Part shown: piece after piece, positions 232-11,842 of the stretch | Layout of the letters: every line of letters starts with the position of its first letter | Position numbering within the stretch: position 1 is the first letter of the stretch | From: Pseudobacteriovorax sp. | Lineage (GTDB): Bacteria; Bdellovibrionota_B; Oligoflexia; Oligoflexales; Oligoflexaceae | NCBI GenBank assembly: GCA_050293845.1 | Contig: JBNKNM010000177.1 | Location: forward strand, 1 to 11,842 | Length of the DNA stretch: 11,842 nt | Reading direction: 5' to 3' | Program-made: the position numbers and the translations under genes | Notes under the pieces: generated by a model | What the model was told of the DNA's origin: nothing | Databases searched by the model: none | The model's input: only the letters and a program-made list of their open reading frames with translations

Positions 232-1683
232 TTGAAAAACCTGATCGTCGTTAGTTATAAGAACCAAATAGAGTCCTTCACAGGTTTTGATCACACTGCT
301 GAAATATTAACAGCCAAAGAATACCTGAACCGTGAATATCCCAAACGTGAACGCATACGAGTATTTAATCTCTGCAACGACTACGACTATTGCAAAAAAG
401 GATACTACGTATCGTTACTAGCTGAAGCAAGAGGGCACCGCCCCTTTCCAGATATTTCCTCTATCTCAGATTTTCAAAGTAAGGAATCCCAAAAGGCTTT
501 ATCTTCGAGCATTTCGGAAACCCTGACCAAATCCCTCAAGGACTTAAAGTCAGATCAATTCGAACTCAGTGTATATTTCGGTAAGAACCTGGCTCAAAAA
601 TATCAAGCTCTAGCCAAACAAATCTTTAACTTTTACCAATCACCATTGATCCGGGTCTATTGTTCCCGTAAAGACCAGCATTGGACGATCAAGTCAGTGC
701 GTCCCATCTCTTACAAAGAGGTTCCTAAAAATCATCGTGAGTTTCTCCAAGAAGCCCTTGTCGAGTTTTTTGGCAGCTCTCGCATTGCTCCTAAGAGTAA
801 GGTTAAAAATTGGCGCTATGACATTGCCATTCTCTGCAACCCCGATGAGGCTCTTCCCCCCTCAAACGAAGGAGCAATAAGAGGCTTCATGCAAGCAGCA
901 AAGGACTTGCGGCTTCGTGCCGAAATTATCGGCCCAAAAGACATTGCATTACTAAGTCGTTTCGATGGACTTTTTATCCGCGAAACCACAAACGTATTTG
1001 ACCATACCTTTAAGTTCGCCAAAAAAGCTGAACTAGAGGGCCTAGTGGTCATCGACGACCCCCAATCGATATTGAGATGTTGCAATAAAGTTTTTTTACA
1101 TGACCTTCTTATGAAGAAACGTCTATCGGTACCTAAGACTTGGATCTTACATAAGGATACTGATCTAGATAAGTTTCAGGACTATCCCCTTATTATAAAA
1201 AAACCCGATAGTGCTTTCTCAGCAGGAGTGAAAAAAGTCAACTCCTTAGACGAATTGATCATTCAATCACAGGAATATTTCAAGCAGTCTGACCTCTTAA
1301 TCCTCCAAGAGTTTATGAAAACGGATTTCGACTGGCGCATTGGTGTCCTAAATAACGAAGCTATGTATGCCTGCCGCTATTATATGGCACCGAATCACTG
1401 GCAGATCATCAAACGCGAAGGAGAGAATACATCTGAGGGAGAGGCCGATTCAATTCCAATTGAAGAAGCTCCACCAGCTGCCGTACAATTAGCACTAGCA
1501 GCCTGCAAAGAAATCGGCACCAGCCTTTATGGAGTAGATATCAAGGAAAAAGATGGACAATTTTATATTATTGAGGTTAATGACAACCCTTCCATTGAAA
1601 AGGGCTACGAAGATCTTGTTCTTGGACAAAGCCTCTATCAAAAAATCATGACGACTTTTCTCACTCGATTGGAATCACGATGA
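232..1683 (+). CDS. RimK-family ATP-grasp peptide/amide ligase with N-terminal RLAN domain (483 aa)
   Basis: N-terminal RLAN-type motif RVFNLCNDYDYCKKGYYVSLLAEARGH. ATP-grasp motifs LFIRETT, VIDDPQSILRCCNK, PLIIKKPDSAFSAGVKKV, QEFMKTDFDWRIGV, YGVDIKE and IEVNDNPS. TTG start with SD. Longer than canonical ribosomal-S6 RimK and RLAN-fused, so no symbol is given. Confidence 0.9.
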   Translation: MKNLIVVSYKNQIESFTGFDHTAEILTAKEYLNREYPKRERIRVFNLCNDYDYCKKGYYVSLLAEARGHRPFPDISSISDFQSKESQKALSSSISETLTKSLKDLKSDQFELSVYFGKNLAQKYQALAKQIFNFYQSPLIRVYCSRKDQHWTIKSVRPISYKEVPKNHREFLQEALVEFFGSSRIAPKSKVKNWRYDIAILCNPDEALPPSNEGAIRGFMQAAKDLRLRAEIIGPKDIALLSRFDGLFIRETTNVFDHTFKFAKKAELEGLVVIDDPQSILRCCNKVFLHDLLMKKRLSVPKTWILHKDTDLDKFQDYPLIIKKPDSAFSAGVKKVNSLDELIIQSQEYFKQSDLLILQEFMKTDFDWRIGVLNNEAMYACRYYMAPNHWQIIKREGENTSEGEADSIPIEEAPPAAVQLALAACKEIGTSLYGVDIKEKDGQFYIIEVNDNPSIEKGYEDLVLGQSLYQKIMTTFLTRLESR

Positions 1684-2909
1684 ACCGCTGGCCGTTTAAA
1701 CTGTTCGAAAAGTATGGTATTGAACTGGAATATATGGTGGTCGATAAAATTTCACTTCAAGTGAAGCCTATAGTAGATCAGCTATTTCTTAAGTTATCGG
1801 GGCAAGTTGAGGAAGAAGTAAAAGGCCAAGAAATCAACCTTTCCAATGAACTCGTAAGCCATGTTGTTGAGTTGAAAAATGCTCGCCCCGAAGAAAATAT
1901 ATTAGCTCAGCAGCTACCTTTTCAATCTAAAATTCTGGAAGTGCAAGATGCACTGGAAGAGTTTGATTGTATTCTCTTACCCACCGCCATGCATCCTTGG
2001 ATGGACCCGGAAAAAGAAACACAATTATGGCCCTATGGAAATAGGGATATCTATAACGCCTACGATAAAATCTTTAGTTGTCAAGGGCATGGATGGGCTA
2101 ACCTTCAGAGCATGCATATTAATATTTCTTTTGGCAGCGACGAAGAGTTTGCACTGCTCAATAGCGCTATCCGAGCTATTTTGCCACTGATTCCTATTTT
2201 GTCCTCAAGCTCTCCCCTAGTTGAGGGTAAACTCACCCAGTTTCATAGCAGTCGACTAACATATTATTTAGAGAATCAGGCCCGTGTGCCATCGATCATT
2301 GGTGATGTCATTCCGCCTACAGTCTCCAGCGAGAAAGATTTTACCGCAAAAGTTCTTCAACCCATGTACAGTGACATCGCTCCATTTGATCCAGAAAAGC
2401 TGTTACAAGAAGAATGGCTCAACTCAAGAGGCGCGATTCCTAAGTTCAAGTATGGCTGTATGGAAATTCGTTTGGCAGATTTGCAAGAAACGCCTTCTAT
2501 GGACTTACAACTTGCCGCATTTTGGACTACCCTACTGCAGACCTTTGCAAAAAAGTCCTGGGGCGATATCGAAGCAATGGACCGTATTTCCAGTGCAAAC
2601 TGCAAACTTGTTTTCCTTGAAACCATCAAGAATGGCGAAAATGCAGTGATCCGCGACTTAGATTACCTGCATGCTTTTGGGGTGAATCAAGCCTGTACAG
2701 GACGGGACTTAATTCATCACATCTATGAAACAATATCTAAGTTCACTCCCAGTCTGGATACTCCAGCTATTCTTTGGATCTTACAGCATGGCAGCCTCTC
2801 CAGCCGCATCATTGAATCCCTAGGAGGCAATACAAGTCGCGAGGCTGTATCATGGGTATATAGAGAACTAAGTCAATGTCTTGTGCGGGGGGACGCCTTT
2901 GCCCCTTAA
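1680..2909 (+). CDS. Glutamate--cysteine ligase family 2 (GCS2/YbdK-like) carboxylate-amine ligase (409 aa)
   Basis: Motifs GIELEYMVVD (ExE metal ligands), NELVSHVVELK, TAMHPW, NLQSMHINI and WLNSRGAIPKF...MEIRLAD. ATGA 4-nt overlap with the upstream stop (1680-1683). Confidence 0.88.
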   Translation: MNRWPFKLFEKYGIELEYMVVDKISLQVKPIVDQLFLKLSGQVEEEVKGQEINLSNELVSHVVELKNARPEENILAQQLPFQSKILEVQDALEEFDCILLPTAMHPWMDPEKETQLWPYGNRDIYNAYDKIFSCQGHGWANLQSMHINISFGSDEEFALLNSAIRAILPLIPILSSSSPLVEGKLTQFHSSRLTYYLENQARVPSIIGDVIPPTVSSEKDFTAKVLQPMYSDIAPFDPEKLLQEEWLNSRGAIPKFKYGCMEIRLADLQETPSMDLQLAAFWTTLLQTFAKKSWGDIEAMDRISSANCKLVFLETIKNGENAVIRDLDYLHAFGVNQACTGRDLIHHIYETISKFTPSLDTPAILWILQHGSLSSRIIESLGGNTSREAVSWVYRELSQCLVRGDAFAP

Positions 2910-3588
2910 GATACTGGTGACATGCGAGCATGGAGACATGTTCGTGCCCAAAGCTCTAACGGAATATCTTTCCACTGAAGACCCTCGGTTGAGAGGTCAT
3001 GAGGGGTTTGACTTTGGAGCTGCGGAGGTCAGTCGATCCATTAGCGAAGCCTTAAATGCTAAGCTCTTAATATTCCATATCACAAGGTTACTCATCGATA
3101 GCAACCGTAGCTGGGAATCCCAGAAAAAGAAGGTTGCAAACTATTCCGAAGAAGCTCTGGATACTGTAAAATCCGCTTACTTCAACTACAGAAATACCGG
3201 CTTTGATCTCGTAGAAAGTTATACTGCGTTAGAAGCTCATTGCTTAGTTCTTTCCATACATTCATTTACTCCAATTTATAAAGGCAAGGCACGTAGAACA
3301 GACATAGGATTGTTGTTTAGAACTGGTATTAAGAAAGAGTTTAAGTTAGCTAACTGCCTCAAAACATCGTTGGCTGATAGCGGGTATACAATTCATTTAA
3401 ATCAACCCTACCAGGGATATACTGACTGCTACGTGAATGATATATCCGACAAATACCTAAACCACCCAATGGTGGGCTTGTGTATTGAATTAAATCACCG
3501 CATACTGAAAAATCCAAACTCTCGCAGGAAAGTTAGTGACTGCCTTGTCGCTGCCATTACAGAGTTCGCCCAGTCTCAAAGACTGTAA
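2899..3588 (+). CDS. N-formylglutamate amidohydrolase-family Zn-dependent hydrolase (about 229 aa)
   Basis: Motifs LVTCEHG, HEGFDFGA, TRLLIDSNR, LSIHSFTP, DIGLLF, NQPYQG and IELN. Start moved from the ORF-track 2881 to TTG 2899, which has GGGGGGA at 2887-2893 and overlaps the GCS2 stop by 11 nt. Confidence 0.87.
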   Translation: MPLKILVTCEHGDMFVPKALTEYLSTEDPRLRGHEGFDFGAAEVSRSISEALNAKLLIFHITRLLIDSNRSWESQKKKVANYSEEALDTVKSAYFNYRNTGFDLVESYTALEAHCLVLSIHSFTPIYKGKARRTDIGLLFRTGIKKEFKLANCLKTSLADSGYTIHLNQPYQGYTDCYVNDISDKYLNHPMVGLCIELNHRILKNPNSRRKVSDCLVAAITEFAQSQRL

Positions 3589-3830: not shown

Positions 3831-4754
3831 TTGAGAGTAATGAACATATTCGTGATAGTCTTCCTAATGGCTTTACTATGGATTAGTGGAGCTTGTGGCA
3901 TATATATAGGAAATCCTGAAGATGATAATACGACAACAGCACAGCCCACATCGAATGATCCCAATAGTCCTGAAGGCGATCCAGGCACTACCCCCAACAC
4001 GAGTGATCCTAATACAGGCGATCCCAATACGGGTGACCCCAACCAAGGTAACTATGAAGATGAGATTATCGTTATTTCCTTAGCAGATGCGCCCGTTGAC
4101 GATCTCAGTGAAATCAATGTCCTAGTTGATGGTATTAATGTAAAACCAAGCGAAGGGGACTGGATATCCCTTGATCTCACCACAAATGAAGCCATCAATC
4201 TTCTCAATTATCAGGATGGTAATAAATTTGCCCTGGGTATTTCCAGTACACTTCCTTATGGTGACTATACACAGATTCGTATAATCTTAAATGCAGATAC
4301 TCCTGTCACTGCTAAGGATACCAATGGTGAGGAGGCAAACATTCGCATCCCAAGTGCGACAGCTTCAGGCATCAAGGTTCAATATCCGTTCTCAGTCACC
4401 GATGATGCGCAGACTAGCGTTACCCTGGATTTCGATCTTCGTTCTTCTATTAAGAAAACCGGAAAATCTTATATGGTACAGCCTGTCATACGTGCCTCTA
4501 ACGACAAATCGAGTGCTTCCATAAAAGGTGAATCGCAAGGCAAAATAGTATGTTTATATTCAAGTGATAATACTGCTGATAGCGATGATGATAGTTGCGA
4601 AAGCTCTTCAGGATCTGCAAAGGTTAAGAACGGAACCTTCCAAATTCATTTCATCGAGGCTGGAAGCTATTATATCCGTACATTCATGGAAGATGACACC
4701 AGCCAAGTTTCAGAACCGTTCACTGTTCAGGAAGGTGAAAAGAAAGTTCTTTGA
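3831..4754 (+). CDS. DUF4382 domain-containing lipoprotein (307 aa; alternative start ATG 3840)
   Basis: Hydrophobic signal ending ISGA-C (lipobox), then a P/T/D/N-rich linker. DUF4382-type motifs ISLADAPVDDLSEINV, INLLNYQDG, LPYGDYTQIRIIL, IPSATASGIKV and VTLDFDLRSSI...YMVQPVIR. C-terminal carboxypeptidase-regulatory-like beta domain (GTFQIHFIEAGSYYI). AAGGA at 3817-3821. Confidence 0.85.
   Translation: MRVMNIFVIVFLMALLWISGACGIYIGNPEDDNTTTAQPTSNDPNSPEGDPGTTPNTSDPNTGDPNTGDPNQGNYEDEIIVISLADAPVDDLSEINVLVDGINVKPSEGDWISLDLTTNEAINLLNYQDGNKFALGISSTLPYGDYTQIRIILNADTPVTAKDTNGEEANIRIPSATASGIKVQYPFSVTDDAQTSVTLDFDLRSSIKKTGKSYMVQPVIRASNDKSSASIKGESQGKIVCLYSSDNTADSDDDSCESSSGSAKVKNGTFQIHFIEAGSYYIRTFMEDDTSQVSEPFTVQEGEKKVL
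4005..4049 (+). repeat. 3 x 15-bp in-frame tandem repeat encoding DPNTG-DPNTG-DPNQG
   Basis: gatcctaatacaggc / gatcccaatacgggt / gaccccaaccaaggt. Differences are mostly at third codon positions. Further degenerate DP units lie upstream from 3957. Confidence 0.85.
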
Positions 4755-5305: not shown

Positions 5306-5830
5306 TTACTTGCGACAATTAAACTCAAAATCACACTGTCGTCCCATAATCATTTCGTCACATGGCCACCGCATGGCTGTCCCACTTCTATGGCAACGTA
5401 TGATCTTGGTCGTTGTCGTGGTGCTATAGCCAAAAAATGGATTGGGAAAGAGATCTGCCATCACCTGCTCAGCCTTGCACCGTGCCTCCAAGTGCCTTCC
5501 ATCTCGCAAAAATTTTAGTGTGCCATCACTAAAATCAAAGGTCCCTTTATTACTGCCATCCCCGACATAGCTGCCGTCGAGAAAAACTTTGATCTTCGCA
5601 TTCTTAGAAACTTTATAGCACTTACCAAGCAGGACCCTGGGATCATGAAATGAGTTGGGTTGGAATTCCGCGAGTAGCCCCGTTGCCTTGAAACTGCTTG
5701 ATGTCTTGTCTCCTCCCGACTTACCAGAATCGATTTGCACTGTGACTGATTCTTTGGGAGAGTCAGATGAATTGCCACAGGCGACCATGGATAGGCTTAA
5801 ACACAGTAAAGACATTTTCAATAATTTCAT
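5306..5830 (-). CDS. Hypothetical Cys-rich lipoprotein (about 174 aa)
   Basis: Start revised to ATG 5830 (GAGGT SD at 5836-5840). MKLLKMSLLCLSLSMVA-C lipobox, S/G-rich linker and six further Cys (an even number), four of them clustered in the last 30 aa. Last long ORF of the operon. Confidence 0.8.
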   Translation of the reverse strand: MKLLKMSLLCLSLSMVACGNSSDSPKESVTVQIDSGKSGGDKTSSSFKATGLLAEFQPNSFHDPRVLLGKCYKVSKNAKIKVFLDGSYVGDGSNKGTFDFSDGTLKFLRDGRHLEARCKAEQVMADLFPNPFFGYSTTTTTKIIRCHRSGTAMRWPCDEMIMGRQCDFEFNCRK

Positions 5831-5860
5831 AAGCAACCTCACTATCTGTTTTCCCTTCAG

Positions 5861-6511
5861 TTAAATATCACAGCTCAGACGAACTTTGTAACCGTTGTTT
5901 TTATCCCATGTAGGAGATAAATCAACACAGATTGCCTCTTGCTGAAATTCTGTTACCGGCATGGTACGATCCCCAACATTTACATAGCCAAAGATATCGA
6001 CATAACCGAATACGGTAAAGTAGCAAAACCCAACTTCTGTGAACAGATTTTCTTTCACTAAATTAGAGTCGATACATACTTGCCCTTGTTCTAATGACAA
6101 CTCTCCATGGCACCAATGAGTTCCATCCCTTTCATCACAGGCATTGCGATCTAAGATACTGCACTGTTGACGAATCACCTTGGATTTACCAAATTTTGGC
6201 TCTACCAAAAATAGATCTTGAGCCTCTTGAATCAAGGCGTCACGCCCCGCTACCACAATAGCTCTAGACCCCGCTTTCACGGTCACGACTTCATTAATTT
6301 CAATTTCTGAAACCAGAAATTCTGACTCTAAGACTTCAGCCTGAATTCCAAGTTGGCAGCGATAGCCTAGATCAGAAGAGGTATTATTGGCAATGATTCT
6401 TATATCATGCTGATCAGGAAACATTGGGCTAGTAAAAACCTTAACATCGCTAGCGAAAAGGCTACTAGTGGATAACATCAGTGTGGATAAAGTCATTAAT
6501 CGAGACATCAT
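5861..6511 (-). CDS. Hypothetical secreted protein with 8 Cys (about 216 aa)
   Basis: Start revised from 6589 to ATG 6511 or 6508 (GGAG at 6517-6520), which removes the overlap with the upstream gene. Sec-type signal ...LMLSTSSLFA-SD, beta-rich mature region with 8 Cys. Confidence 0.8.
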   Translation of the reverse strand: MMSRLMTLSTLMLSTSSLFASDVKVFTSPMFPDQHDIRIIANNTSSDLGYRCQLGIQAEVLESEFLVSEIEINEVVTVKAGSRAIVVAGRDALIQEAQDLFLVEPKFGKSKVIRQQCSILDRNACDERDGTHWCHGELSLEQGQVCIDSNLVKENLFTEVGFCYFTVFGYVDIFGYVNVGDRTMPVTEFQQEAICVDLSPTWDKNNGYKVRLSCDI

Positions 6512-6525
6512 ATAAACTCCATTTT

Positions 6526-7137
6526 TTAAGATCCTGATATGTGCCAAGCAAATGAGACAGGCCAATCTATGGTTTGAAATCCATTCCATGCTTGTAGCTT
6601 AAATTCTATGGAACCGAGCAAGGCGAGAGTTACGGTAAAATTTTTCTCAACCTTATCTCCGTGGATTGCATCCACCATCATGGAGACAACAATTTCTCCC
6701 CCTTGGATACCACCTGTGATAGTTGTTCTGGAAACCCAGTTGGCTACAGGTCCCATCAGTGAGATAGTGCCATTTGCGAAGTTAGGGTAGGTAAATACGG
6801 CATGAGGCTCACGCTTAAGTATTTCCTCCATTAAAAATCGATACTCATCCAGTTCTTCAAATCTGCTAGGATTGGGAACCAAGCGAAACGAAATTAACCG
6901 TCTTCCGTCTGATAGCTTCAGTACTCTCTGCTGTTTGCTTCCCCCTTCTTCTTTAACCTGAAAGGATTTAGGGATCAGATAGAATAGCTTAGGATTATTT
7001 TTATCTCTAAAAACCGCTGGGCTTTTCGCGACCAAACTGCCATCAGTAAACTGTACCGGCTGGGTAATATCTACAAGATTCTCGGCAAATAATCCACTAC
7101 TCAAAGTCAAAAAATAAATAAATAACAGTGTTCTCAT
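6526..7137 (-). CDS. Hypothetical secreted protein, short paralogue C of the unnamed tandem family (203 aa)
   Basis: Signal peptide MRTLLFIYFLTLSSGLFA-EN and SD GAGGAG at 7144-7149. Shares RDKNNPKLFYLIP, LISF, EILKREPHAVF and NG motifs with the two upstream ORFs. Confidence 0.85.
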   Translation of the reverse strand: MRTLLFIYFLTLSSGLFAENLVDITQPVQFTDGSLVAKSPAVFRDKNNPKLFYLIPKSFQVKEEGGSKQQRVLKLSDGRRLISFRLVPNPSRFEELDEYRFLMEEILKREPHAVFTYPNFANGTISLMGPVANWVSRTTITGGIQGGEIVVSMMVDAIHGDKVEKNFTVTLALLGSIEFKLQAWNGFQTIDWPVSFAWHISGS

Positions 7138-7147
7138 AATTAACTCC

Positions 7148-8305
7148 TCAAAAAAATGAACCAGCAGCTATTGGATCAAAACATCCAAGCAGTGGATCAC
7201 AAATAGGATCTACAGGCGCGCACCCTAAAATAGGATCACATACAGGGGGCTCTTCACCTCCCCCACCGGGGACAAGCTCTTCACACCCCATTCCTTCATT
7301 AGAATAATTAAAAAATAGATGTGAGTATTTGAGACAAGCCCCTTTTAAATGGCTACCAAGTTGGGCTCGTTGCAGGGAGGTTTGGGTTCCCCTTTTGGTA
7401 CTAAGTTCAATAATTTCACTGCTATCTTGCAGTTGATCAAGATAAAGGAGGTGGGGATAAAACAACCAATTTTTTGGGGGCTGCTGCCAAAAAATTTTTG
7501 GCATTAAAGGAGACAAGGCCGCTGCCGCCTTCAATATGAACTGTGGATCGCTATTGATGTCCTGCAAGGGAATCACTGATTTACCGCCATCAAAGTTAAA
7601 TCCGATACTTTGGATTATCATCTGACGAACCCAGTCTCCATCTAAATTATTTCCTTTTCGAATACTCTCCAAGAAATGGTCGTTATCTCTTATATGTCTT
7701 AAAAAGTTGTCTTTATGAATCTTAAAATCGTAGTTTTTCGAAATTTCCTTAGCAATAAAGGAAAAGTCAAAACCGAGAGACAGTAAACTTCCATTTCTCG
7801 TAGAGGCATGCAAAGTTAAAATATCAACCCCTTCTGGGCTGATCTTGGCATGAAAGGGAAGAGCCACATTTAAATTAGCATTACTGAATTCACTAGATTC
7901 AGCGATAATACGATAATTAAAAGATGACTCCATCAAATTCACTGTCAATTTGCCACTCGAGATGGGTAGCATGGAAAATCTTGCATTTGGGTTAGCTCTT
8001 TTTATCTCAGAAAGAACCCTCTCAAAGCCAGTAGCCGGTTGTATACGAACCATCATCAAAATATGACCGTAACCAGCATCATCTATCACCATGCGAAACA
8101 GCGGATTGCCGTCTTCCTTCTCCAAATTTATTTTGCTTGGTACCACATAAAAATGATCACTATCATTTTCATCCACCAGAAGCTTCACGCTATGATTCAT
8201 AAGAGTGGAGTTCAAACCTGGAGTGGACACACTTTCAACCAACGGAATACTATAGGCATTCGCGTAGTAAATAGAAAAAATCAGGACTACTCTTAAAAAA
8301 AACAT
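7148..8305 (-). CDS. Hypothetical secreted protein, paralogue B of the unnamed tandem family, with Cys/Pro repeat tail (385 aa)
   Basis: Signal peptide ending ANAYS-IP and SD AAGGAG at 8312-8317. Motifs VDENDSDHFYVVP, DGNPLF, EIKRANPNARF and CLKYSHLF...GC. Confidence 0.85.
   Translation of the reverse strand: MFFLRVVLIFSIYYANAYSIPLVESVSTPGLNSTLMNHSVKLLVDENDSDHFYVVPSKINLEKEDGNPLFRMVIDDAGYGHILMMVRIQPATGFERVLSEIKRANPNARFSMLPISSGKLTVNLMESSFNYRIIAESSEFSNANLNVALPFHAKISPEGVDILTLHASTRNGSLLSLGFDFSFIAKEISKNYDFKIHKDNFLRHIRDNDHFLESIRKGNNLDGDWVRQMIIQSIGFNFDGGKSVIPLQDINSDPQFILKAAAALSPLMPKIFWQQPPKNWLFYPHLLYLDQLQDSSEIIELSTKRGTQTSLQRAQLGSHLKGACLKYSHLFFNYSNEGMGCEELVPGGGGEEPPVCDPILGCAPVDPICDPLLGCFDPIAAGSFF
7181..7246 (-). 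repeat. Two in-frame repeats P(V/I)CDP(I/L)LGC with 39-bp period
   Basis: PVCDPILGC (7220-7246) and PICDPLLGC (7181-7207) follow a PGGGGEEP linker. Confidence 0.85.
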
Positions 8306-8316
8306 TGATCACTCCT

Positions 8317-9390
8317 TTAGTACGAAAAGACTACTGACGGCCAGAATGGCAAACTCGGGTCCTGCTCATAATTCAAAGTAGAGGGACTAGACTGCGAGGG
8401 ATTTTCTGGAATGATTCGATCCGGACACCCACTATGAATTTTTCGATCATGACTTCTAAAGACAAATAAATCTGGATACTCATTGCATAAGCTGCCAATT
8501 GAGAATCCGACAGCTGCCTTGAATGCAAAACTCGCATCACTCTTTACTGTCAACTCTTCAATCATGTTTTTGTGACAAGATTCCGGGTCTACTGTATACC
8601 CAACAAAAGGACTTTGCGGTAAAGTAGAAACAAAACAGGAGTCCCGACCTAAGCTGGACAAATAACTTAAGATAAAATCCCAAGGAACATCAGGCCCACT
8701 GGTGAAGACCTTTAGCCCTTCATCCCTACGAAGAACTTGTAATTCTTCTGATATAGTCTTTTGTGAGTGGATCAGCTTTTGAGAGGCATTTTCAATAAAC
8801 ATCTCACGATCGAATCGTACCATCGCCACAGAAGGAAACGTTTCCGCTTCAAAATCATAGTGATAATTCACACCAAGTATAGCCCCTGTTTGAAGAGCCG
8901 TAACAAGTAAATCTCCTTGATCTTTATTAAAATGAATCGCTACCGACCATGGATTACCAAGACTTGATTCTACCAATGGTGTTCCTGCTTCAAAAACTTC
9001 ATCTCCATCCTGAGTCCTTATCGTCAAGCTATAGGATCCGGAGCGCACATCTACTAACTTAAATTGCGCTTGCGGATTCTCTTCTAAAATTTTCTGACGA
9101 GACTGCTCAAATGCGGGCCAATCAATGTCAGGTTTTACAGTAAAAGAAATCAACGCCCCCTTCGGGTGATAAGAAAACCCAAAGTCAGGATAACCTTCCT
9201 TATCGTAGACAATTCCTAAGCGATTATAGGGGACATGAAATAAATTATGGTCTTCGCTATCTCGCAACATTGTGATGGCCTCCTGACCTGGAGATCCCAA
9301 GCTTAAATGGCTTGCATCACCATCCACAAAAGGGATGGCCTGGGCTTGCCCACACAACAACATGAAGAGTATAGTACTTCTCTTGATCAT
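8317..9390 (-). CDS. Hypothetical secreted protein, paralogue A of the unnamed tandem family (357 aa)
   Basis: Signal peptide ending AQA-IP and SD AAGGAAGG at 9396-9403. Motifs RDSEDHNLFHVP, EGYPDF, KILEENPQAQF and CNEYPDLF...GC, with a P/S-rich tail. Confidence 0.85.
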   Translation of the reverse strand: MIKRSTILFMLLCGQAQAIPFVDGDASHLSLGSPGQEAITMLRDSEDHNLFHVPYNRLGIVYDKEGYPDFGFSYHPKGALISFTVKPDIDWPAFEQSRQKILEENPQAQFKLVDVRSGSYSLTIRTQDGDEVFEAGTPLVESSLGNPWSVAIHFNKDQGDLLVTALQTGAILGVNYHYDFEAETFPSVAMVRFDREMFIENASQKLIHSQKTISEELQVLRRDEGLKVFTSGPDVPWDFILSYLSSLGRDSCFVSTLPQSPFVGYTVDPESCHKNMIEELTVKSDASFAFKAAVGFSIGSLCNEYPDLFVFRSHDRKIHSGCPDRIIPENPSQSSPSTLNYEQDPSLPFWPSVVFSY

Positions 9391-9405
9391 AACAACCTTC
9401 CTTCT

Positions 9406-11793
9406 TTAATCTTCGGGATCAGGAGCACCATCACCAGGGTGCACGACGACATTATAAAGGCGATCCAAGGCTTTTCCTTTTTCATCCGTAGCAAAAAGCC
9501 GATCTAAAATATCTATCCAAATCGAACGCACATTGCCCCAGTGCATTTTGTAGTACAAGGGATAGTTAAAGGTGACATCTGGCTCAGGATCTGCCACCGG
9601 CTGCACAATCGCTAAACGCTCAAAAAGTGCTTGTTGCAGTGACATTTGCGCTAAGATGTCCAGAAGAATTTCCCTAGGAATTAAATTCCTCTTTAAGAAG
9701 TCCTGCAATACTTGATATTTAGATAAGACAGTAGGGATATCTAAAAAGTCTTGGTGTTCAGCCTCCTGGGGATGAACTTTTTCTTGGGCAAAAACGTCTT
9801 TAGTCCATCGAAAAACTAATTGCGCCATAAACCGCTCCCGTTCCTCGATTTCCATTTGCTGGATAAATCTATAAGCCATGCGCCGTGGATTGAAAAATGT
9901 TTGTGCTGTAACGGATACTTTTGCCGGGCCATTTTTCAACATCGATTCTAAAAAGTAGAACACTGCCTCTTCATGCTTTAGCTCACGTAGAAGCAATCCA
10001 GCTACTGCAAATCTCACATCAGGATCACCGTCGGAAGACATAAGCTTCAATAGCTCGCCTGTGACATCCCCATTGGTAGGATGAAATCCAATTCGTCTTG
10101 GAGTATTTTCATTTTCCAGTGAGACTCCCGCTTGGCTGGTCAATGACCCATCAAGGACAATCATTGCTGAAATGCCTCCACGCAGGCGGTTTTTCAAGCG
10201 TATTTCAACTTCTGTGATAAACTCATCCCTTTCAGTTTCGATAAAGCGGCTATTAATGCTATCTAGATGCTGGGGTTGAGCACTACCACTGCCAAAAATA
10301 CTAATTTTATTCCGCAGATCTGTTTCAGAGATTTTCCCACCAAACGTCAGTTTGATAATCGAACCAGGTGTAACAAAACCTCCCTGATTGGGGTCACTTT
10401 CAAGCAGTGCCGGATAATCTGAATTTTCTTTAAATCGACAAAGGTCGAGCTGTAGATCGATCACGCTAGAAAAGCCCATACCAAATGATGGACCTGCGTC
10501 AGGAGGTAGAGCTAGGTCATTTAAAACATCACATTGACCGGCGTACTCTAAAACAAACTCCATTCCAGCTTTGAATTCCATCATTCCAGCCTCCGAGGCT
10601 GACTCGTGCCGTATCATATCCAACTCTGCAGCAGCACCTATTGCAACTCTTCGCACCTGGGGATTTTCATCGGAAAGCGCTTCAACAATAATTTGATTGC
10701 TTTGTGAGGACCACTGCCCGGCCCTTCCTAGAGCATAGATAGCAGCAGATCGAACCGATGCTTCTGAATCCCGTGCACCATCGATAAGAAGTGAGATTCC
10801 AAATTGATCATTTTCTACAACATTCCTAAGAGCTGCAATCATCTGTGATTTTGCAACGGGATGACGTTCGATTTGTATCGCTGAGTATAAAGCGAGGCGT
10901 GCAAACTCAAGTACCTTCGCTTCGTAAGCAGGAACATGAAGGAGACAGACATTATCCATAATACTTAAGGCTTGAACGTCATCGACATCAGTCATACGAT
11001 CAAAAAGATTGCTTGAAACGAGGGGGACTTGAGGACACCCAACAGCAACAGGCATCGCCACGCGTAAGTCCCCGGGATCTAATGGGTTTGGCACGTCCTC
11101 AGCTTTACGTGGGATACAAGCTGGAATCCCATGTAACATGGATCGCGGATCAGTATTTGGATCAGCAAAGTAAAAATTTTGAAAATCAAACCCTGTGGAC
11201 CATGGTAGATCGGGACAATGAGATTGAACAGCTTGGTCCCTTAAGGCTAACGCGGCGGCACCTCTGACTAAAGGAGCTTCGTCTTGCAGTAATTGAATTA
11301 GCCTTGAATTAATTAGAAAACTTTTATTTCCTTGTAAGCGTAGAGCCGCCGCTGCCTCCCGTCTAACCAGAGCTTTTGTATCATAGCTGGCATTAAGGAG
11401 AGAATACATGACCATGGAACTGAAGTTGCCATGGGTTCCCATCACTTTCGCAGCCCCTGCTCGTTCATAACCGTCTTTCGAATCGATGCTATCTAAGGCC
11501 ATAGCTGTAACAATAGTACGTTGCCAATTTTCCGAAGACGCTGGTTGCTGGGCAAATGTCTTCAACATTTCTGCCCTTAAACGACTGTCTTTAGTTTCAT
11601 AGTACTCGCTGTTTAATTGCCAGAAGTTAGTAGAGGTTTCAAAGTCATTACAATAACCCTGATAAAAGGGTGGTAAGTCTTTTTTAGAAATAGGCTCAGC
11701 ATCACCACACTCTTGCGCCTTGAGTCTAAACTGCAAGTTCGCGTTAACAAACTCTTCTGAAACATTAAAACCAAAATTTCTGCAGCATTTCAT
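9406..11793 (-). CDS. HEAT-repeat protein with inserted Big_5-like Ig domain (795 aa or more; true 5' end uncertain)
   Basis: HEAT/PBS-lyase-type repeats SYDTKALVRREAAAAL, LLQDEAPLVRGAAALAL, ARDSEASVRSAAIYALG, ALSDENPQVRRVAIGA and DGDPDVRFAVAGLL. Ig-like pattern at aa 461-573. No SD before ATG 11793. Confidence 0.8.
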   Translation of the reverse strand: MKCCRNFGFNVSEEFVNANLQFRLKAQECGDAEPISKKDLPPFYQGYCNDFETSTNFWQLNSEYYETKDSRLRAEMLKTFAQQPASSENWQRTIVTAMALDSIDSKDGYERAGAAKVMGTHGNFSSMVMYSLLNASYDTKALVRREAAAALRLQGNKSFLINSRLIQLLQDEAPLVRGAAALALRDQAVQSHCPDLPWSTGFDFQNFYFADPNTDPRSMLHGIPACIPRKAEDVPNPLDPGDLRVAMPVAVGCPQVPLVSSNLFDRMTDVDDVQALSIMDNVCLLHVPAYEAKVLEFARLALYSAIQIERHPVAKSQMIAALRNVVENDQFGISLLIDGARDSEASVRSAAIYALGRAGQWSSQSNQIIVEALSDENPQVRRVAIGAAAELDMIRHESASEAGMMEFKAGMEFVLEYAGQCDVLNDLALPPDAGPSFGMGFSSVIDLQLDLCRFKENSDYPALLESDPNQGGFVTPGSIIKLTFGGKISETDLRNKISIFGSGSAQPQHLDSINSRFIETERDEFITEVEIRLKNRLRGGISAMIVLDGSLTSQAGVSLENENTPRRIGFHPTNGDVTGELLKLMSSDGDPDVRFAVAGLLLRELKHEEAVFYFLESMLKNGPAKVSVTAQTFFNPRRMAYRFIQQMEIEERERFMAQLVFRWTKDVFAQEKVHPQEAEHQDFLDIPTVLSKYQVLQDFLKRNLIPREILLDILAQMSLQQALFERLAIVQPVADPEPDVTFNYPLYYKMHWGNVRSIWIDILDRLFATDEKGKALDRLYNVVVHPGDGAPDPED

Positions 11794-11842
11794 TTGCTAC
11801 GTTCACATATGGGGTGCAAGACAGAATAGTCTCCAGGACCTT
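11765..11842 (-). other. Probable coding sequence entering from the right edge (upstream gene end, or frameshifted N-terminal part of the HEAT gene)
   Basis: Two - strand frames are open from the edge: KVLETILSCTPYVNVANEMLQKFWF* (stop 11765-11767) and GPGDYSVLHPICERSK* (TGA at 11790-11792, overlapping ATG 11793 as ATGA). Confidence 0.5.

Follow-up and report, generated by a model that had tools for sequence, protein, structure and literature searches.

Chaperone-usher pili and the type V pili of Bacteroidota are surface fibres built from paralogous exported beta-sandwich subunits. Operons for chaperone-usher pili are defined by their usher and PapD-like chaperone genes, and the subunits of type V pili are lipoproteins of the FimA/Mfa families. 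Here we describe a six-gene operon of Pseudobacteriovorax sp. that encodes a large HEAT-repeat solenoid, three diverged paralogues (A, B and C) predicted to have a beta-sandwich core, a Cys-rich protein and a lipoprotein. It lies on contig JBNKNM010000177.1 (G000:C177), which in its entire length of 11,842 nucleotides (nt) is the window of this analysis; the genome, G000, amounts to 6.68 Mb in 741 contigs. The operon is a real envelope or surface module and maps to no described system, its role in the cell being a proposal only. It is one variant of a modular cluster that recurs in few genomes of the same phylum.

As in pilus operons, diverged exported paralogues stand in a row and are accompanied by a lipoprotein. 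However, neither chaperone-usher nor type V pili are known to have a counterpart to the large HEAT solenoid, and A, B and C differ from type V pilins in carrying non-lipoprotein signal peptides and in matching no Pfam family. The solenoid itself resembles the PBS-lyase/alphaRep proteins, karyopherin-beta and the PP2A A subunit (PP2A-A) in its two canonical HEAT-repeat blocks and its overall shape. Unlike these scaffolds, it is exported, has 14 conserved Cys, is rich in Cys in its N-terminal region, contains a beta insertion, and is encoded beside exported beta-sandwich paralogues. The core of the B model is an immunoglobulin (Ig)-like sandwich with a helical cap, and the structures that match it best are two LEA-2/WHy domains (At1g01470, 1xo8; TMEM106B, 8b7d) and the ligand-binding domain of SgrA (5fce). 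In contrast to these, the modelled sandwich of the family to which A and B belong (F1) is discontinuous, with a helical insert of about 95 residues and a Cys-bridged C-terminal part.

The six co-oriented genes occupy the minus strand from 11842 to 5306, as read from the list of open reading frames (ORFs) and from the sequence (Table 1). They are separated by gaps of 15, 11, 10, 14 and 30 nt, and by eye we found Shine-Dalgarno-like AG-rich sites 5-10 nt before the starts of the five downstream genes; coordinates and sequence here bear out what the first-pass annotation had described. The guanine-cytosine content of the operon is 0.39-0.46, and its base composition is the same as in the remainder of the contig. 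Since the next gene downstream of the lipoprotein gene, which encodes a DUF4382 protein, is convergent, the operon ends at 5306. A terminator scan gave no site immediately 3' of the lipoprotein gene; the sole terminator-like site lies about 440 nt downstream (4870-4853) and is within chance expectation. No Rfam family was found in the window. That the six ORFs are genuine genes and no product of chance follows from the homologues and the gene order found again in other genomes, as described below.

Table 1. Protein-coding genes of the window: the six genes of the operon in order of transcription, followed by further genes of the contig.
Feature	Coordinates	Strand	Cys in mature part	Remarks
HEAT gene	9406..11842	-	10 (window ORF)	Exported Cys-rich HEAT solenoid; 5' end cut by contig end; split by one extra T
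Paralogue A, 357 amino acids (aa)	8317..9390	-	4	Family F1, long; signal peptide, N-terminal shared module, Pro-rich tail
Paralogue B, 385 aa	7148..8305	-	6	Family F1, long; signal peptide, beta-sandwich core (model), helical insert, Pro/Cys-rich tail
Paralogue C, 203 aa	6526..7137	-	0	Family F2; signal peptide
Cys-rich protein, 216 aa	5861..6511	-	8	Orphan; exported
Lipoprotein, 174 aa	5306..5830	-	6, plus the lipid-modified Cys	Orphan; lipobox MVAC to Cys18; last operon gene
RimK-like ATP-grasp + RLAN domain	232-1683	+
GCS2 carboxylate-amine ligase	1680-2909	+
N-formylglutamate amidohydrolase-family protein	2881-3588	+
DUF4382 protein	3831-4754	+		Convergent to the operon

All six operon products are exported. 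By a heuristic, the N-termini of A, B, C and the Cys-rich protein resemble signal peptides: a hydrophobic 9-mer of 1.9-2.7 occurs among the first 15 residues, and positions -3/-1 are taken by small residues. The last protein has a lipobox. A type I signal peptide or a lipobox, as used in Sec/Lol export, is thus present throughout, in the case of the HEAT protein via its full-length version P0017 (see below). The first-pass annotation had counted four signal peptides and one lipoprotein; these are recovered, and the HEAT product has to be added to them. No further transmembrane segment was found by the same heuristic in any of the six window proteins. The number of Cys in the mature part is even in five of the six products and this, together with 14 invariant Cys in the HEAT protein, fits an oxidising compartment.

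Only the HEAT protein, among the six, matches Pfam/NCBIfam above chance. PADLOC gave only two weak HEAT-repeat matches (5.9e-5 and 1.1e-4), and PHROGs gave no match for the window proteins. Hallmarks of type VI secretion systems, extracellular contractile injection systems, Tc toxins and the beta-barrel assembly machineries BAM/TAM (sheath, tube, baseplate, TcA/B/C, Omp85) are absent from the six proteins at Pfam/NCBIfam E<=1, a test that covers this 11.8-kb contig only. The operon had earlier been assigned to no named system, and no catalytic motif had been recognised in its products. Both statements hold: searches against Pfam, NCBIfam, PADLOC, PHROGs and the sequences of the PDB turned up HEAT repeats only, and no catalytic domain was found in the six products.

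The ORF listed for the HEAT protein (11793-9406, 795 aa) is an assembly artefact; the real product has about 910 aa and is exported. The listed ORF corresponds to the downstream of two frames and lacks a signal peptide by our heuristic. The frame upstream of its ATG at 11793 is open to the contig end and runs 11842-11765 (stop 11767-11765), overlapping the ATG. Its translation matches residues 102-120 of a homologue, P0016 (58% over 19 aa), directly before the point where the 795-aa ORF begins to align with that protein. These adjacent matches in two frames imply that the frame is broken by a single base within the A3T4 run (11779-11773), with the extra T in the run 11776-11773. Two further sequences bear on the junction. 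A contig from run X1 (depth 6.75) covers 11692-11842, omits one letter at 11773 and extends about 597 nt past the window; it was assembled independently, and run X1 may be the source sample. The 910-aa protein P0017, which falls in the same 90%-identity cluster as the 795-aa protein and is encoded on a 16,764-nt contig, reads through the junction and starts with a typical signal peptide. The X1 contig without the extra base and the read-through in P0017 confirm the frame break in the window. The N-terminal part of the HEAT protein is found on no other G000 contig, and none of these contigs overlaps the right end of the window. The earlier view that the operon continues past the right edge is correct in that the HEAT gene itself runs on, and has to be amended in that the start at 11793 is not real.

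Pfam finds HEAT_2 (PF13646; 7.7e-18, 65 bits for a cut-off of 27.7) and HEAT (PF02985; 8.7e-16, 57 bits for a cut-off of 23.5) in the protein, each in three stretches, and a PDB sequence search identifies HEAT repeats of the PBS-lyase/alphaRep type (4.6e-24). Outside its own 90% cluster, only two homologues of the protein were found: P0016 (930 aa, 34% identity at 97% coverage, from the database search), whose cluster also contains P0018, and P0014 (900 aa, from genome G103, found in the phylum scan), which likewise matches the HEAT_2 and HEAT hidden Markov models (HMMs). Both have signal-peptide-like N-termini followed by a Cys-rich region. Across P0017, P0016 and P0014, 14 Cys are invariant at an overall identity of 26-36%, as would fit a disulfide-bonded extracytoplasmic protein.

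An AlphaFold2 model of the 795-aa part, computed from a three-sequence alignment, has a mean predicted local distance difference test score (pLDDT) of 59. It places helices at 13-190 and 262-456, strands at 463-570 and helices again at 577-784. Two HEAT blocks are well modelled (about 60-190 and 265-390, pLDDT 70-90), and the beta region at 463-570 is of low confidence (pLDDT about 45-70). The 'HEAT+Ig' architecture that had been proposed is confirmed for its HEAT part by the Pfam and PDB searches; an Ig domain in the beta region is only plausible. With this model Foldseek retrieved 192 chains at E<=0.001, and the resemblance is to karyopherins, PP2A-A and designed ARM/HEAT binders. Given that karyopherins, PP2A-A and alphaRep are protein-binding scaffolds, the HEAT protein is expected to act likewise.

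Judged by sequence comparison, A, B and C are true paralogues, in agreement with the first-pass annotation. BLASTP relates A to B (2e-6), B to C (3e-5) and, more weakly, A to C (0.15), and a profile of six C-like proteins matches one of 15 A/B-like proteins at 96.8% (E 2e-10, 169 columns). C is thus equivalent to the beta-rich module of about 190 aa at the N-terminus of A and B. The members of the family are strongly diverged (15-28% identity), and relatives are few in the databases searched. At E<=1, the three proteins have no Pfam/NCBIfam match except a chance-level NCBIfam match for A (E 0.12). With A as query, a word-based search over 5.8 billion clusters retrieved A alone, and phmmer with B against 1.84 billion representatives returned 12 proteins at E<=0.001 including B itself, that is, 11 relatives. 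The cluster members whose names we looked up are all called 'hypothetical protein', and the family profile finds nothing below E 0.34 among PDB sequences.

The AlphaFold2 model of B (15-sequence alignment, pLDDT 75, predicted template modelling score 0.60) shows a beta-sandwich made of N-terminal strands at 41-197 and C-terminal strands at 298-333, a helical insert at 198-291 and a disordered Pro/Cys-rich tail at 345-385. Two Cys, C324 and C341, are invariant in the 15 sequences. Foldseek found nothing in the PDB at E<=0.001, and B had no usable match in the ESM Atlas either. In an exhaustive structural comparison the highest scores went to an SgrA domain (5fce, Z 8.5), LEA14 (1xo8, Z 6.9) and the luminal domain of TMEM106B (8b7d, Z 6.6), followed by many Ig/FnIII/C2 sandwiches with Z 5-6; such Z values are in the range that the tool reports for models without a true match.

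A scan of 131 genomes of the phylum with the family profile gave six positive genomes in two taxonomic families, with 10 matches in G011, three in G103, two in G000 and one each in G012, G104 and G007. Homologues of A occur in G103, G104, G011 and G012. We then sorted into families the 116 ORFs of eight loci, namely the window and seven others that had been fetched. Family F1 has 21 members including A and B, and F2 has six, C and members in five other loci; further families are F3, F6, F7 and F8. F9 consists of three large signal-peptide proteins (826-919 aa) with many Cys, one of them with a weak HEAT_2 match, F10 of the window HEAT protein and its G103 homologue, and F13 and F15 are lipoprotein families. 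In profile comparisons, long F1 proteins (F1long) match the short ones (F1short) at 96.3%, F2 at 95.5%, F3 at 94.0% and F6 at 74.1%; the superfamily includes F1short, F2 and F3, and probably also F6.

A Pro at +2 after the predicted cleavage (AxA before and xP after the cut) is seen in most members of F1, F1short, F3, F6 and F7. With a crude regular expression, it was counted in 32 of 38 family members; among the remaining ORFs of these loci that have a signal-peptide-like N-terminus, the count was 20 of 54. Some 25-35 residues after this Pro, a common acidic stretch is followed by a hydrophobic-aromatic-x-Pro strand motif, and the long family members have an aromatic-x-Pro motif at their extreme C-terminus.

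Gene order is F10-F1-F1-F2-Cys-rich protein-lipoprotein in the window and F10-(255 aa)-F1-F1 in G103, where three RCC1-repeat proteins and a third F1 lie upstream. Contigs C18 and C187 of G011 both have the order F3-F2-F1short-lipoprotein-F9-F1(-F1-F1). The longest array, in G104, reads F1-like-lipoprotein-F9-(251 aa)-leucine-rich repeat (LRR) protein-F1-F6-F7-F3-F8-F2-F1short-lipoprotein. The same series without a solenoid in the fetched DNA, F1-F6-F7-F3-F8-F2-F1short-lipoprotein, is found in G012 and on contig C107 of G011; this order is kept in three loci of three genomes. Finally, contig C344 of G011 has three F1 genes and a trypsin-like protease, and the contig ends upstream.

A large solenoid-type protein is thereby encoded directly upstream of F1 genes in five of the eight loci, in four genomes and both taxonomic families: two of these loci have a true HEAT homologue and three have F9. 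True HEAT homologues are present in two of the 131 genomes (G000 and G103), directly upstream of F1 members both times. A lipoprotein is found in six loci, and an F2 member also in six. F9 and F10 are positionally equivalent only. One more HEAT-F1 linkage probably exists outside this set, as P0018, from the cluster of P0016, and P0019, from the cluster of the B-like protein P0003, are each encoded on a 7017-nt NCBI contig, which is probably one and the same. Searches of metagenome and genome contigs with the HEAT protein, P0003 and P0004 brought up no related locus. As to the co-occurrence that the first-pass annotation had proposed to look for, arrays of paralogues do recur in other genomes alongside a large solenoid and a lipoprotein.

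Several observations on individual loci may be added. In G011, the 10 family matches are spread over four contigs (L011, L013, L014 and L015) with two cluster layouts, a strong lineage-specific expansion. The three secreted RCC1-repeat (beta-propeller) proteins of G103 (L034, G103:C132, 13519-19522) are interleaved with the third F1 gene, directly upstream of the HEAT homologue. Just downstream of the G104 cluster (L035, G104:C112, 423-1937), genes for a YcaO-domain protein and a GNAT acetyltransferase are found, which are probably unrelated.

The last two genes of the operon behave otherwise. The Cys-rich protein has no relative in the 131 phylum genomes, retrieves only itself in the word-based search of 5.8 billion clusters, matches no Pfam, NCBIfam, PADLOC or PHROGs family and no PDB sequence, and shows no relationship to F1short. 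A 177-aa ORF of G103 appeared as a candidate relative from a weak match (E 5e-4 in a small database), which the scan of the phylum did not bear out. For the lipoprotein, all that was found is weak and partial matches in three other genomes (E 2e-4 to 1e-2); it is unrelated to the cluster lipoproteins F13 and F15, and has no PDB match. What is conserved at the cluster's end is no more than that a lipoprotein of some kind is encoded there.

The question arises as to what such a module does. In the reading that we favour, with a probability of about 45%, the products join, or at least cooperate, in an extracytoplasmic assembly that is stabilised by disulfides and whose role at the cell envelope or surface is structural or one of binding. 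The HEAT solenoid would be the scaffold that binds the beta-sandwich paralogues, in the way in which HEAT/ARM solenoids generally hold their partner proteins, and the lipoprotein would tether the assembly to a membrane. The variable set of paralogues would then supply lineage-specific surface or envelope functions, for example contact with prey, host or substrate. The assembly is suggested by the tight operon, export, paired Cys, a solenoid of a binding class, paralogous sandwiches, a membrane anchor and a recurring order; since no catalytic domain was found, a structural or binding role is likelier than an enzymatic one.

A number of observations weigh against this proposal. No result shows a physical interaction between the products, and the hetero-oligomer and the pore, toxin or adhesin role put forward by the first-pass annotation received no supporting evidence. 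Export was judged by a heuristic of hydrophobicity and -3/-1 residues only. The cluster and its family were not found in G001, a genome of the same genus that is 94% complete. Comparison of F9 with F10 by hhalign gives 37.6%, on HEAT repeats only, and does not establish homology. Three of the eight loci (L011, L012 and L013) have F1 arrays without a solenoid gene in the fetched DNA, L011 ending at a contig edge, and the F1 family can apparently work without a solenoid. The fold modelled for B is a generic sandwich and is uninformative on function. Lastly, the Cys-rich protein and the lipoprotein, which have no relatives in the other clusters, are lineage-specific additions outside the conserved core; the six-component system that had been proposed stands as a tight operon of exported products and was overstated as to its components, the last two genes being unconserved in the phylum.

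The proposal can be extended to a new machine, in which a disulfide-locked secreted HEAT solenoid organises variable F1/F2/F3/F6 subunits on a lipoprotein anchor and is used for cell or surface contact, in a small phylum and with an expansion in one genome. In this full form we consider it unlikely.

A first alternative is that the genes are regulated together while their secreted products, for instance diversifying adhesins, binding proteins or effectors that arose by tandem duplication, act each on its own and form no stable complex, the HEAT protein being one more binder. In its favour are the low identity among the paralogues, a copy number that varies from 10 matches in G011 to 1-3 elsewhere, and the secreted LRR, RCC1-repeat and trypsin-like neighbours in related clusters, which fit a secreted interaction repertoire; in addition, some loci have no solenoid. 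However, three loci of three genomes share one order of distinct families, and five loci share the order solenoid-then-F1; genes that are so constant in order and so closely spaced more often encode cooperating products. We regard independent action as somewhat unlikely, yet as the alternative that has to be taken most seriously.

The paralogous sandwich subunits might instead polymerise into a fibre or pilus-like structure, for example if they exchanged strands by way of the conserved mature N-terminus or else of the C-terminal tail, with the lipoprotein as anchor and the solenoid as assembly factor. An array of exported beta-sandwich paralogues with a lipoprotein would suit such a fibre, and so would the conserved Pro at +2 near the mature N-terminus and the C-terminal aromatic-x-Pro of long members. 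We searched the six window proteins and 44 scanned ORFs of related loci for usher, PapD-like chaperone, FimA/Mfa, pilin and sortase families (Pfam), and found none. Moreover, the type I signal peptides of A, B and C are not those of type V pilins, and the sandwich in the B model is complete, without an evident gap in its set of strands, although its N-terminal 30 residues have pLDDT <62. We regard a fibre as improbable.

Structural resemblance raises another scenario, a periplasmic system for lipids or hydrophobic ligands that would carry lipids or lipoproteins across the envelope, the F1 sandwich being distantly akin to LEA-2/WHy domains and provided with a lipid groove. Two of the three top structural matches of B are LEA-2 folds (1xo8 and 8b7d), and a preprint proposes that LEA-2 domains hold a lipid groove (bioRxiv 10.1101/2021.03.12.435176). 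The Z values are nevertheless in the background range, and the sequences do not support the relationship: the LEA_2 HMM (PF03168) has no match at E<=1 in A, B, C or 15 family members, and a profile of 10 LEA_2 proteins compared by hhalign with F1, F1short, F2, F3 and F6 gave <=1% probability. What the same HMM does find is a separate canonical lipoprotein, of about 150 aa in G000 (on contig C24 only), with matches in 33 of 41 related genomes as well; the window genes are not among its hits. We tend to discard this scenario as quite improbable. A multi-component pore-forming or binary toxin, with the helical insert of F1 refolding into a membrane-spanning element, is the least probable, as its sole support lies in secreted paralogues with a beta core plus helical insert and in interaction-type secreted neighbours, whereas no MACPF, CDC, aerolysin, ClyA, Tc or Bin family was found with Pfam/NCBIfam or among the listed fold matches, nor any evidence of an amphipathic hairpin.

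Returning to the extracytoplasmic assembly, if the products do assemble, both the envelope or surface apparatus that they build and the fold family behind it would be new and worth characterising. No described protein family accommodates five of the six products, nor at least five additional families from the related clusters. Moreover, it is unusual for a HEAT solenoid to be exported and to be linked genetically with an array of paralogues. The HEAT gene also illustrates how an annotated ORF, here of 795 aa, can be an assembly artefact that hides a longer secreted protein.

On the other strand, the starts and stops of the genes at 232-3588 overlap, which suggests that they form one operon making or trimming a gamma-glutamyl-type peptide. 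The DUF4382 protein has a lipobox-like N-terminus and a low-complexity linker rich in Pro, Asp, Asn and Thr, with short GDPNT-like repeats. Within the HEAT operon, positions 10701-10957 are matched without differences by a 257-nt contig of run X5, which comes from another study and is labelled 'salt marsh metagenome', a small hint as to habitat only.

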